Positions 4,928-37,636 of a stretch of 64,000 nt of DNA are shown here, piece by piece. Numbering within the stretch: the stretch's first letter is position 1; every line of letters starts with the position of its first letter. Made by a program: the position numbers and the translations under genes. Source of the stretch: a virus. The notes beneath the pieces are model-generated. The model did no database searches, was not told the DNA's origin, and saw only the letters and a program-made list of their open reading frames with translations. The stretch is from the IMG/VR virus record IMGVR_UViG_3300010316_000005, positions 1 through 64,000 of that record. One strand, given 5' to 3'.

Positions 4928-5359
4928 ATGAACTACGCAGAAAATCCAATTGAAGATTTGCACAATGCTATGGCCCACGCTGAATACGAGGGCTTTAGTA
5001 ATATTCACTATGAAACCCGAGACTGGGAGTTGTATAAATCAAGTGACCGCAAAGAAGACAAACGTATCCCTAAGACACGCAGGCCTACTACAAGAGACTT
5101 TGGTGTATACGCAATGTTCCCCCAAACGTGGGGCAGCACTGCGCTAGGACACGGCGGAATGGGCGGAGCGTCAATGACCACTGCGTACACTATTGTACTA
5201 GAATGTACAAACACCGGAGAGTTTTTGGTTTACTTTGGCGGGAGTTATTGTTACACGATCAAAGGAAAAAACGATGCTTTCCTTGAAGATTGTAAAAATA
5301 GATGTCTTGCTGGGAAGCGTAAAGCAAAAACAAAATACGGAATCGTAGAGCAGGATTAA
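4928..5359 (+). CDS. conserved phage hypothetical protein (probably with a replaced C-terminus)
   Basis: AGGAG RBS; FPQTWGSTALG motif; stop shared with convergent HEG. Confidence 0.8.
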   Translation: MNYAENPIEDLHNAMAHAEYEGFSNIHYETRDWELYKSSDRKEDKRIPKTRRPTTRDFGVYAMFPQTWGSTALGHGGMGGASMTTAYTIVLECTNTGEFLVYFGGSYCYTIKGKNDAFLEDCKNRCLAGKRKAKTKYGIVEQD

Positions 5360-5368
5360 TCCTGCTCT
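5347..5368. repeat. 22-bp perfect palindrome centred on shared TTAA stops
   Basis: AGAGCAGGATTAATCCTGCTCT; both convergent ORFs end EQD*. Confidence 0.9.
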
Positions 5369-6165
5369 CTATTTTTAATATCTTCTAACAAAGAAAGTAA
5401 CTTTTCTTTTGATCCAAGATTCCACCTTCTTGGTAACTTTATATTCTTGCTTAATGCTATTTCTTTTATTTCTTCTCTTATATAGTTGAGTTTAGAATAT
5501 GTTTTTCTTTGTATTTCGCCACCTAAAAAGTGGTGGGTCCCGTTGTCGATTCTTTTCTTGTGTGTTTTTCTTTGTATTTCACCACTTGAAAAGTTATGTT
5601 TTCCTTTAGCAGACAACTCAAATTGCGTGTTGCGTTGAACATCACTATTTAAGAAATGATGTGTTCCGTCTTCTATCCTCTTGCGTTGACTTTCAATCAT
5701 CTTTTTTCTAACATCATCTCTTTGAGACGAATGCCTTCCTTCTTTTAACATTCGCTCATTCATATCTTTTCCTAAAAACGGATGAGAGCCATTTTCAATC
5801 CTTATTTTATTGTTTTTTGATTTTTCTTCGGAGTCAAGCCAATGATGTGTTCCGTCTTGGATTCTCCTTTTTGCCAAGTCGCTGGCAGTTTTTGAATCAA
5901 TGCCTTCTGCTGATTCGGGTATTAAGTTTGCCCATTCTTTGGATTCTACGATATTCCAAAGATTACTATAATACAGTCCGGTTTCTTTGATTTCTTCTTT
6001 GTTATCTGTTTCTAAAAGTAATTCTGTGCTAATATCGTCGCCGTGTGTTTTTATGTGTCGTATCCAATGTTTACCAGACCCTTTATATTCATTTGGATCA
6101 TTTTTTGTGTAGCCGAGATATTTTAATCCAGTTTTGTTGTGTGTTTTAACATATAAATAATACAT
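5356..6165 (-). CDS. Seg-like GIY-YIG homing endonuclease with G-x-H-x-F repeats
   Basis: YLYVKTHNKTGLKYLGYT..YKGSGKHW; repeats DGTHHW, NGSHPF, DGTHHF, KGKHNF, NGTHHF. Confidence 0.75.
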   Translation of the reverse strand: MYYLYVKTHNKTGLKYLGYTKNDPNEYKGSGKHWIRHIKTHGDDISTELLLETDNKEEIKETGLYYSNLWNIVESKEWANLIPESAEGIDSKTASDLAKRRIQDGTHHWLDSEEKSKNNKIRIENGSHPFLGKDMNERMLKEGRHSSQRDDVRKKMIESQRKRIEDGTHHFLNSDVQRNTQFELSAKGKHNFSSGEIQRKTHKKRIDNGTHHFLGGEIQRKTYSKLNYIREEIKEIALSKNIKLPRRWNLGSKEKLLSLLEDIKNREQD

Positions 6166-6247
6166 TGCTGTTGCTCCTTCATTTTGTTTAGCAATAGAGT
6201 AGTTGGGATGCCCGCCAAGAAATCCGTGAACTACACTTTTATTTATA
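6166..6247 (-). ncRNA. putative structured cis-regulatory leader RNA of HEG (copy 1), preceded by TATAAATA
   Basis: Shares stems and TTGGCG loop with 36887-36963, with compensatory changes. Confidence 0.6.
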
Positions 6248-6255
6248 CAAAGTTG

Positions 6256-6285
6256 TTGACAACCATTGGAGAACTGTGCTATAGT
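6256..6285 (+). promoter_or_regulatory. sigma70 promoter restarting downstream transcription
   Basis: TTGACA-18-TATAGT with TG extension. Confidence 0.55.
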
Positions 6286-6384
6286 GTAGAGAGAAAAAGT
6301 AAAAACATCAACGTGTTTGTTGAAGATTGCGCAAATCGCTGTCTAGTAAGCAAGAGAAAGAGCGAAAAGTATCATGGGAATTAA
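6268..6384 (+). pseudogene. relic 3' end of the 4928 gene
   Basis: GELCYSV..VFVEDCANRCLVSKRKSEKY aligns with GSYCYTI..AFLEDCKNRCLAGKRKAKTKY. Confidence 0.8.
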
Positions 6385-34451: not shown

Positions 34452-34982
34452 ATGTTATTGAAAACTGATGACCTAGGCATTCCTAGATTTACTTCTCGCA
34501 ATCTTATTGATATGATATACAGCGGACACGCTAGTAAGTGTCACGTTGTTCTGTGTGATGCAGATGACGAGATTGAAAAATTTAATGCAGCGATGGCAGA
34601 CCAAGGATTGCCATTGCTAACAAAATATGTTCCTATCGACGTTGAACAAAAAGACTTTGACAACGTATGTCAAAGTGAATGGTTTATGCCAGACAAATAT
34701 AAAAAATCTGACGAAGTTCTGTTTCATGACTTACTTGGAATGTCTAGTGACACCGACGAAGCAGATAGAATTTTGGAAGAATTTGATGCCTATGATGATA
34801 GAGGTATGCTTGACTTATTGAAATATCTAATATACCTTGTAGACTTTATGCGTGAAAATAATATCGTATGGGGAGTCGGACGTGGATCTAGTGTAGCTAG
34901 TTTTATATTATACAAGATAGGCATTCATAAAATCAATAGCTTAAAATACGGTTTAGACTGGCGAGAATTCCTGCGAGACTAA
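34452..34982 (+). CDS. DNA polymerase III alpha (DnaE)-like fragment
   Basis: R..EE, LVDFMRENNIVWGVGRGSSVAS..LY.IGIH.IN.LKY.L...FL; promoter TTGACA-17-TAAACT at 34417-34445. Confidence 0.8.
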   Translation: MLLKTDDLGIPRFTSRNLIDMIYSGHASKCHVVLCDADDEIEKFNAAMADQGLPLLTKYVPIDVEQKDFDNVCQSEWFMPDKYKKSDEVLFHDLLGMSSDTDEADRILEEFDAYDDRGMLDLLKYLIYLVDFMRENNIVWGVGRGSSVASFILYKIGIHKINSLKYGLDWREFLRD

Positions 34983-35865: not shown

Positions 35866-36234
35866 ATGACTAATATATTTAAAGATTCAAAGGACTTCAT
35901 GGTGGCCATTGATCAGCACGAACCTAACCAAGCACAATTTGACTTGTATGTTAAACTAATCGACGAAGAACATAGCGAACTACATGACGCAATTGAAGCA
36001 GATGATCGGGTGGAGCAGCTCGACGCTCTTGTTGACATCTTAGTTGTAACTGCCGGAGCAATCAACTCAATGGGTGCAGATGGCGAAGGCGCGTGGAACG
36101 AAGTGATGCGCACTAACTTTGCTAAGGTCGATCCAGAAACAGGCAAGGTTCGCAGACGCGAGGACGGAAAAGTTTTGAAAGGGCCTAATTGGGTTCCGCC
36201 TAATTTAGAGCCTTTCTTGTCTAAATTAAAGTAA
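35866..36234 (+). CDS. MazG/PRA-PH-like NTP pyrophosphohydrolase (probably with a replaced C-terminus)
   Basis: LIDEEHSEL..DALVDILVV..EVMRTNFAK..REDGKVLK. Confidence 0.85.
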   Translation: MTNIFKDSKDFMVAIDQHEPNQAQFDLYVKLIDEEHSELHDAIEADDRVEQLDALVDILVVTAGAINSMGADGEGAWNEVMRTNFAKVDPETGKVRRREDGKVLKGPNWVPPNLEPFLSKLK

Positions 36235-36886
36235 ATCTGTTTTTATACAATTTGTTAGGATTATACCTAACAGCCCAAAATAGTCCGCTGCGGTTTATCC
36301 CTAGCGGACTTATTTTTTCTTCAAAATTATGTCTATTGAACATTGTCCGTTCTCCAGTGTGCATGTCTAGTAGTACATAATCTTTAACAGGAATTGGTCG
36401 AATTTCGTTTCGACGCTTAACTCCTTCTGAAATCTTTTTAGAAACTTTTTTAGAGGTAGTATTACCGTAATTCCAGTGGCTTTTTCCAGTCATGCGATCT
36501 ATGTGTTGAGCCACTCTTTCTTTGTCATCTTTCCAGCCGTGTCCTTTCTTTGCTTTAGAAATGTTTGCCTTTGTTTCTTTTGACATTACCCAGCCAGCAT
36601 TGCCATCGCCGCCGTCTGTTTTATTATGTAATATGCCAGTACCGTTGTCTATGCGCCCATGCCATCTTATTAGGCGCCGTTCTAATGCTAACGCGCCTAC
36701 ATCTGTTAGATTAGATTCTAAGATGAAAATATTCGAAAAGTCTTTTTTTGGAAATATAGTTCTGTCTGATCTAGCCCATGCTCGTTTACCACATCCTTTA
36801 CCTATGTAATAAGGTGTTCCGTTATCTCTTATGTAAGCATAGACGTAAAAATCTTTAGGCAAGTTGTTTTTAGAGTAAATATTCAT
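36221..36886 (-). CDS. GIY-YIG homing endonuclease
   Basis: FYVYAYIRDNGTPYYIGKG..R, LHNKTDGGDG, SKETKANIS; tail-to-tail overlap. Confidence 0.8.
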   Translation of the reverse strand: MNIYSKNNLPKDFYVYAYIRDNGTPYYIGKGCGKRAWARSDRTIFPKKDFSNIFILESNLTDVGALALERRLIRWHGRIDNGTGILHNKTDGGDGNAGWVMSKETKANISKAKKGHGWKDDKERVAQHIDRMTGKSHWNYGNTTSKKVSKKISEGVKRRNEIRPIPVKDYVLLDMHTGERTMFNRHNFEEKISPLGINRSGLFWAVRYNPNKLYKNRFTLI

Positions 36887-36963
36887 GCTGATAGTTCCTT
36901 TTAAAATTCAACTGTTAGAGTAGTCAGGTACGCCAATACCGTGGACTACACTTATATTTATAC
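36887..36963 (-). ncRNA. putative structured cis-regulatory leader RNA of HEG (copy 2)
   Basis: TATAAATA then GTAGTC..GGTA-TTGGCG-TACC..GACTAC; homologous to 6166-6247. Confidence 0.6.
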
Positions 36964-36980
36964 AAAAGATATAAAAGAAC

Positions 36981-37043
36981 AGGGAAGATGTTCTTAAACC
37001 CGCAGACTGGAAAGCACCTGAACTAGCACCTTTCCTAAAATAA
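36981..37043 (+). pseudogene. relic 3' end of the MazG-like gene
   Basis: REDVLKPADWKAPELAPFLK* vs current REDGKVLKGPNWVPPNLEPFLSKLK*. Confidence 0.85.
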
Positions 37044-37099
37044 CCGTTGACTCCTTGTAATTTTTATGCTATAGTGTAATGAATTACAAGGAGACTTTT

Positions 37100-37636
37100 A
37101 TGGCCACACACGGCACAATCGACTTAGAGACGCTAGACGTTATTCCGACAGCAACCATACTCAGCTTAGGTGCTGTTAAATTTGATCCGTTCTCTAACGC
37201 AGAACCACATTCAGAATTATATCTTAAAATTTCAATCGACGAACAAGACGCTCTTGGTTGTACTGTCGCCGACAGTACAATCGAATGGTGGGGCAAACAA
37301 GATCCTGAAATTATGGAAGAAGCGTTTGACCAGAACGGCGCAGTGTCAGTTGAAGAAGCACTGCGTCAAGTTAGCAAATGGGCAGTGGGAGTAGATGAAT
37401 TTTGGGGACAGGGGTACGGCTTTGACTTCACAATTCTCGAAGATATGTATCGCAAAGTAGGGAAGCCTATTCCATGGCAGTTTTGGCAAGTAATGGACAG
37501 TCGTACTATTACAACGCGTATGCCACGTGATCCACGCAAAGATATGCAGACCAGCTTGCACAATGCACTTGCTGACGCATACTTTCAGGCAAAGTCAATT
37601 CAAATTATTTTTAAACATAACGGGTGGACTAAATGA
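37100..37636 (+). CDS. DEDDh 3'-5' exonuclease
   Basis: IDLETL, FDF.IL, DSRT, HNALADA; promoter TTGACT-17-TATAGT at 37047-37075. Confidence 0.85.
   Translation: MATHGTIDLETLDVIPTATILSLGAVKFDPFSNAEPHSELYLKISIDEQDALGCTVADSTIEWWGKQDPEIMEEAFDQNGAVSVEEALRQVSKWAVGVDEFWGQGYGFDFTILEDMYRKVGKPIPWQFWQVMDSRTITTRMPRDPRKDMQTSLHNALADAYFQAKSIQIIFKHNGWTK

Follow-up and report, generated by a model that had tools for sequence, protein, structure and literature searches.

The DNA examined here (the window, i.e., the whole stretch of 64,000 nucleotides corresponding to positions 1 to 64,000 of the IMG/VR virus record IMGVR_UViG_3300010316_000005) contains a mazG-like gene whose end is found twice, once in the gene itself and once beyond an endonuclease gene lying on the opposite strand. 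The question raised by this locus is which of the two ends belongs to the gene and how the other one came to be there. The first-pass annotation had proposed a 3' replacement, in which a new gene end arrived with the endonuclease and the old one was stranded behind it. This reading is upheld by the colinearity of the locus with endonuclease-free relatives, by the recurrence of the same layout at other loci and by the presence of an identical cassette in diverged gene bodies. We estimate at about 85% the probability that an intron-less homing-endonuclease cassette is inserted inside the 3' end of mazG and has replaced the gene end of an uncultured T4-like phage. The locus is composed of the following features:

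35866..36234, + strand: predicted MazG-like (PRA-PH type) nucleotide pyrophosphohydrolase gene, an intact hybrid of 122 aa with Pfam and PHROG matches
35866..36180, + strand: mazG body up to the V-L-K codons, which follows the resident gene lineage
36181..36234, + strand: replacement tail associated with the endonuclease gene, 17 codons and a stop, of which the final 14 nt lie within the endonuclease 3' end
36221..36886, − strand: predicted free-standing GIY-YIG and NUMOD3 homing endonuclease gene, intact, 221 aa, recognized by its motifs, NUMOD3 and predicted fold
36895..36962, − strand: endonuclease leader, with a ribosome-binding site (RBS) at 36895-36900, a hairpin at 36917-36952 and the T4-late-promoter-like TATAAATA at 36955-36962
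36973..36989, + strand: remains of the K-R-(E)-D-G-K codons, scrambled and with the frame broken (the stub), the same remains being found at other orphans
36990..37043, + strand: orphan tail, 17 intact codons (V-L-K-P-A-D-W ...) and TAA, without a start codon
37047..37636, + strand: sigma-70-like promoter (promoter scan) and Rv2179c-like 3'-5' exonuclease gene (PF16473, E 1e-35)

The product of the mazG-like gene (stop TAA at 36232-36234) matches PF01503 (PRA-PH) with 39.8 bits (cut-off 21.3) and PF03819 (MazG) with 16.6 bits, under the cut-off of 22; its match to phrog_671, a phage "nucleotide pyrophosphohydrolase" family, has an E-value of 7e-36. The acidic metal-binding motifs, E-E-x-x-E followed by E/D-x-x-D, are kept in this protein and in all the aligned relatives, as judged by eye from the alignment. 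The product is a MazG-like/PRA-PH all-alpha NTP pyrophosphohydrolase, with its activity predicted. Relatives were retrieved from 80 loci on viral contigs (58-71% identity), all of them free of the endonuclease and all ending with the conserved stretch K-R-E-D-G-K-V-L-K-P-E-G-W followed by about 10 variable residues. Among the GenBank phages, a megablast search with the locus gave no match, and tblastn with the MazG protein disclosed distant relatives only (best 47%).

The body and the tail of the gene have different affinities. Residues 81-100 are 100% identical to those of a syntenic endonuclease-free locus (L043), and the nearest bodies in a large protein set (P0122-P0126) are 82-86% identical and carry unrelated tails, the agreement running to V-L-K and being followed by divergence; no body relative nearer than 86% was found. 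The tail in use belongs to the class G-P-N-W ... P-P-N-L, which occurs only adjoining this endonuclease clade, that is, in the group of loci around L184 (referred to as the L184 group) and in the protein P0128, on bodies just 69-74% identical to that of the window. P0128 and the endonuclease homologue P0009 probably lie on one contig, since the longest contig is of 48,759 nt for both. Because the nearest bodies have other tails and this tail class sits on bodies of 69-74% identity, the active tail appears to have arrived with the endonuclease.

The endonuclease ORF ends at 36221-36223 on the reverse strand and the mazG ORF at 36232-36234 on the forward one; the two are thus convergent and overlap by 14 nt, exactly with the coordinates and frames given by the first-pass annotation. 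As many as 40 full-length homologues of the endonuclease were found in the large protein collection (50-88% identity), the nearest being P0002 and P0003 (86-88%). In the resulting alignment of 41 sequences, Y14, Y16, Y26, Y27, G29, R35, E69 and N88 are invariant, and these residues include the tyrosines of GIY and YIG and the active-site Arg, Glu and Asn. NUMOD3 (PF07460) is present in all 41 members (31 bits in the window protein, cut-off 20.4), and PHROG 314, a "homing endonuclease" family, matches the window endonuclease with an E-value of 9e-5. The Pfam GIY-YIG models (PF01541/PF22945) gave no match at E <= 0.01 in any of the 41 members, and a search of the PDB with the sequence profile gave none either, I-TevI included. 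The fold was predicted with AlphaFold (pLDDT 79.7), and the nine top Foldseek matches of the model are all UvrC GIY-YIG domains. VIA-align scores for the N-terminal domain of the model are moderate, i.e., Z 6.7 with both UvrC and PD-T4-3 (1ycz, 9u75), Z 4.9 with I-TevI (1ln0) and Z 4.2 with T4 EndoII, and the predicted structure of the C-terminal residues 152-221 is matched to the I-HmuI DNA-binding domain with Z 4.4. The predicted structure and activity are those of a GIY-YIG homing endonuclease of the Seg/I-TevI type.

The leader hairpin, which follows the TATAAATA-like late promoter and precedes the RBS of the endonuclease gene, is present in the window and in L164, L170, L171, L173, L184 and L192, and in the alignment of these seven loci 8 of the 16 predicted pairs have compensatory changes. 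A paralogue of the endonuclease N-terminal domain exists in the same phage record (G000:C1:157384-157701; 43% over residues 11-117).

The orphan tail was found as the first-pass annotation had described it: the frame of 36981..37043 contains a 20-residue peptide and a TAA at 37041-37043, followed by CCG and by the TTGACT of the -35 box at 37047. A start codon is lacking in this frame, which is closed by a stop five codons upstream (36972-36974). A profile HMM was built on 48 unique endonuclease-free tails and scanned over all the 3409 six-frame peptides of the window. The best match with the whole tail HMM is the orphan (27.4-28.4 bits, E ~1e-7 to 4.3e-7), the second is the active tail (17.4-19.8 bits, E 5.8e-4), and, besides these two, nothing under E 0.8 was found in the window. 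The annotation had named as its own refutation a family alignment in which the orphan peptide is not homologous to the C-terminus of the enzyme; what was observed is the opposite, the orphan being more canonical than the active tail. Moreover, in tblastn searches the orphan falls on the mazG 3' end of many relatives. It reads P-A-D-W, not P-E-G-W, and this variant is found in the intact alleles P0151, P0152 and P0162, the tail type x-D-W-K-A-P being common also to the close-body relative P0124 (84% body identity).

Across the segment from the orphan and its stop through the promoter (-35 box with flanks, -10 box) and the RBS to the exonuclease start, the sequence is colinear with the endonuclease-free syntenic loci L003, L043 and L056, and the gap of 3 nt between the stop and the -35 box is the same 3 nt in L003. 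Given its tail type and the intact alleles that have its variant, the orphan looks like the end of a live allele and not like decayed DNA: it would be a canonical 17-codon gene end stranded ahead of the exonuclease promoter, and the sequence is compatible with its being silent.

One detail of the earlier reading has to be changed. The orphan peptide had been considered to begin with a "RED" homologous to the R-E-D of the gene and followed by a 6-nt deletion of the G-K codons. The comparison with four other orphans revealed that the homology starts at V-L-K-P (36990) and that, in place of a deletion, there are scrambled G-K codons with a 2-nt excess. A stub with the core ACAGG directly precedes each orphan, representing a damaged copy of the D-G-K codons, in the window, in L164, in the L184 group and in L192; the window, L164 and L184 have 2 nt too many at this place, L164 has a stop codon as well, and L192 lacks one codon. 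The "R-E-D" of the window is a coincidence, since the scrambled D-G-K codons of the stub spell R-E-D in the frame of the tail.

The promoter behind the orphan consists of a -35 box TTGACT (37047-37052), a 17-nt spacer and a -10 box TATAGT (37070-37075), matching 10 of 12 positions with a TG. The exonuclease gene probably starts at 37100: this start is likelier than the listed ATG at 37079, because the alignment with the relatives begins only at residue 7-8 and it is the ATG at 37100 that the RBS at 37088-37094 serves. On the other side of mazG, at 34452-34982, there is a 176-aa ORF whose matches are limited to phrog_11127, a phage family of 171 positions, and to positions 18-94 of 260, near the N-terminus, of the DNA polymerase III alpha NTPase domain (PF07733); its product is a stand-alone, fragment-sized "polymerase" protein.

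Elsewhere in the window, a second gene-end replacement can be observed at 4928-6380. A diverged copy of the ~35 C-terminal residues encoded by the gene 4928..5359 (143 aa) begins near 6268 in frame 0, just past the start of a reverse-strand ORF (5356..6165), and is preceded by the same leader motif; the alignment scores 91, whereas shuffled sequences reach 46 at most. Among the other reverse-strand ORFs of the window, the test for a C-terminal orphan was negative at 2733, 16653 and 54237 and positive only for 5356..6165.

A search for related loci with the window endonuclease alone found nothing, and a search with the 41-sequence alignment gave N-terminal-domain relatives only, among the matches listed. 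Endonuclease-bearing loci were gathered using two homologues as queries and a degenerate DNA pattern for the conserved C-terminus; the pattern requiring Ile re-found four known loci, and a widened version retrieved 16 metagenome loci and found none in the genome contigs. All the full-length homologues with flanks (about 10 distinct loci) are convergent with, and abut, the mazG 3' end: these are L164, L170, L171/L186, L173, L192 and the L184 group (seven loci). Since the surrounding genes vary between loci, it is mazG, and not a type of genome, with which the endonuclease is associated. At this fixed mazG 3' site the endonuclease is present in about 10 distinct loci and absent from 80. On the mazG-body tree, the endonuclease-bearing label needs six changes, at least four of which are forced by supported branches.

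The order core, inserted end, endonuclease ORF and native-type end is the same in the window, L164, L173, L192 and the L184 group. The left junction of the orphan is likewise shared by all of them, and at all five orphan-bearing loci, window included, the orphan outscores the active tail against the endonuclease-free tail profile. No orphan was found at L170 and L171, where the endonuclease is present. As many as 56 of 59 endonuclease-free proteins have the motif P-x-G-W, which none of the seven tail types linked to the endonuclease has (Fisher p 1.5e-7, with no correction for relatedness). In some endonuclease-free loci (L043/L046/L047/L049 and L060-L062), P-x-G-W is replaced by the non-canonical P-T-N-W or P-K-S-Y, and these ends resemble the endonuclease-linked tails; such alleles may be resistant ones remaining after the loss of the endonuclease. 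About one quarter of the 120 closest MazG proteins vary at exactly the two codons affected.

The L184 group gives a direct view of the movement of such a cassette. Its endonuclease is 78% identical to that of the window, and its tail belongs to the same class (G-P-x-W ... P-P-N-L). In L184, L190, L193 and L198 the mazG bodies are only 55-80% identical, and from the G-K codons onwards about 1.1 kb are 100% identical, a block that runs from the new tail over the endonuclease and its leader to the orphan and the promoter; this sister cassette has recently moved between mazG alleles. The left junctions all fall in the G-K-V-L-K codons and span about 12 nt; that of L198 lies past V-L, because L198 retains its own V-L codons. 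On the right side, L185, L187, L190, L193 and L196 have an intact small membrane-protein ORF and then the exonuclease gene. In both L184 and L198 the imported block breaks off within this small ORF, at the I-G-W codons, and is continued in frame by a mazG tail that differs between the two loci, i.e., a second, nested orphan; at the right joint the block and the G-W codons of the target share the microhomology GGNTGG. The resulting ORFs are chimeras of the donor membrane protein and the recipient mazG tail (about 2400-2550 in L184, with the endonuclease on the − strand, and about 5450-5600 in L198). The second orphans are the tails of the recipients themselves, and they were absent from every endonuclease-free allele collected.

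Since the left junctions lie at or before K and the right ones at G-W, the break can be bracketed to the K-P-E codons. The first-pass annotation, which had placed the breakpoint near the RED-GK-VLK codons, was close: as indicated by the sister-group junctions, the break lies a few codons downstream, in K-P-E and not in R-E-D/G-K.

How far do these data establish that the orphan is the former end of this very genome's gene? The annotation had taken this for granted, and it is likely; in the sister group, though, the first orphan travels with the cassette, and the window orphan could therefore have been imported in the same way. The anatomy would be identical, and the orphan would have come through a long co-conversion tract from a syntenic donor already having the layout tail, endonuclease, orphan and promoter. 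In favor of such an import, the first orphan of the L184 group and the promoter behind it lie within the 100%-identical mobile block, and the stub ahead of the window orphan is common to L164 and the L184 group. Against it, the x-D-W-K-A-P tail type occurs also in P0124, among the closest bodies, and the promoter spacing equals that of the endonuclease-free relatives, neither point being decisive. Import is thus a serious possibility, even if we lean towards a resident origin.

There is little chance that the orphan has been retained for a function, as a short translated peptide or as a part of the promoter/UP region of the exonuclease gene. Its 17 codons are indeed intact and its stop lies 3 nt ahead of the -35 box; nevertheless, the frame lacks a start codon and is closed by a stop five codons upstream, the endonuclease-free relatives have a live gene end at the same spot, L170 and L171 do without an orphan, and the intactness is accounted for by recency or by renewal at each invasion.

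It is still less probable that a tandem duplication of the mazG 3' end came first and that the endonuclease landed later between the two copies, no foreign tail being involved. An endonuclease gene flanked by two diverged copies of one gene end would fit this scheme, which is opposed by the restriction of the active tail class to the neighborhood of this endonuclease clade, on unrelated bodies, by the two tails being about as different as those of unrelated alleles and by the identical cassette in four different mazG backgrounds. Lastly, a chance similarity or an assembly artefact, which has nothing in its favor except the shortness of the segment, is practically negligible given the E-value of 4.3e-7 in the six-frame scan, the same layout in independent assemblies from several metagenomes and the endonuclease protein on 7 contigs.

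Under the replacement of the gene end by an incoming cassette, the mobile unit would be composed of the substitute mazG tail, the reverse-strand GIY-YIG/NUMOD3 gene with its late-type promoter, the hairpin leader and the K-R-E-D-G-K stub. The enzyme would cut an endonuclease-free mazG in the highly conserved K-P-E-G-W codons, a site that we infer from the junctions only; among the free-standing Seg enzymes of T4, cleavage some way off from the enzyme's own gene is frequent (PMC2988022). The broken mazG would be repaired from an endonuclease-bearing phage, and since the left end would recombine in the conserved G-K-V-L-K codons, the gene body would stay resident. The substitute tail and the endonuclease gene would be copied in, leaving the canonical tail downstream, unread. 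In this way the target would be split, the copy in use having its left half with altered P-E-G codons and the orphan its right half with a ruined left half; because neither copy is a full target site, the carrier genome would be protected.

Because it retains the right half of the target, the orphan could also serve as a homology arm. We put forward tentatively, and without considering it the likelier case, that the element makes use of the stranded tail, namely as a portable right-hand arm renewed at each invasion, and that recombination between the two tails deletes the endonuclease. If the arm reading were true, the cassette could home into any mazG regardless of the downstream sequence; a renewal at each invasion would explain intact orphans beside a decaying stub; and a precise tail-to-tail recombination would yield endonuclease-free yet resistant alleles, for example, those with P-T-N-W tails such as L043. 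In that case, a complete cycle of gain, loss and immunity could be read from metagenomes.

It is known that in fungal mitochondria mobile ORFs (mORFs) carry a foreign C-terminus, as in atp6 of Allomyces macrogynus and in atp6, atp9, cox2 and nad3 of Glomus (PMC3630166), and C-terminal duplications of atp6 and cob have been described in the same organelles (PMC6279837). As in the mORFs (PMC3630166), the inserted C-terminal segment is the one in use and the native one is stranded downstream of the endonuclease ORF, the inserted end is the more divergent (here, the orphan outscores the active tail at 5/5 loci), and the spread is horizontal. Unlike them, the present case concerns a phage and not an organelle, only 17 codons are replaced, and the endonuclease gene runs antisense towards mazG under a promoter and a leader of its own, whereas that of the mORFs has the same orientation or is fused in frame. 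Another difference is seen in the population data, with nested orphans and one cassette shared unchanged by several alleles. Judged by this analogy, the design itself is known, being documented mainly in fungal mitochondria, and the phage version can be considered a variant of it. No description of a mazG-targeting endonuclease, or of a spare-gene-end design in phages, was found in the literature, of which our coverage is incomplete.

Other similarities connect the locus with phage T4 and its relatives. As in the "intronless homing" of the Seg enzymes (PMC2988022), a GIY-YIG nuclease with a modular DNA-binding tail is found in a T4-like phage, is driven by a late promoter, adjoins the targeted gene and would spread by break repair with co-conversion of the flanks. 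The seg genes, however, lie between genes and their products often cut at a distance (PMC2988022), whereas the window gene lies within the target coding sequence, and its cassette carries a spare gene end and leaves a duplicate. The GGNTGG microhomology junctions of L184 and L198 recall the 1999 work on T4 intron homing with engineered laboratory substrates (summarised in PMC2988022), in which homology is one-sided and the other junction is formed at a microhomology; unlike those, the present events are natural ones and leave in-frame chimeric small ORFs. In Aeh1 nrdA/mobE and T4 gene 60/mobA (PMC2988022), too, an endonuclease gene is inserted in a conserved coding part, but those insertions give two reassembling polypeptides, whereas mazG stays a single gene because the cassette supplies the missing end. 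Finally, with I-TevI, the endonuclease of the phage T4 td intron, the window protein shares the GIY-YIG fold, a NUMOD3-type linker, the DNA-binding architecture and a putative target in a highly conserved coding stretch; unlike I-TevI, it has no intron, and there is no match at the sequence level.

Of greatest interest is how the movement of the cassette is recorded at the level of populations. The related loci form an unusually clear natural record, with one cassette in four diverged alleles, left junctions within about 12 nt, right junctions at microhomologies giving rise to nested orphans and chimeric small ORFs, and a hot spot of two-codon variation at the putative cut site. This record gives a testable target prediction for a new, presumptive mazG-specific GIY-YIG enzyme, and annotators might consider that short "intergenic" stretches beside phage endonuclease genes can be fossil gene ends. 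For the phages themselves, the finding means that, by way of a spare gene end, a homing endonuclease can inhabit an intact phage protein gene with neither an intron nor an intein.
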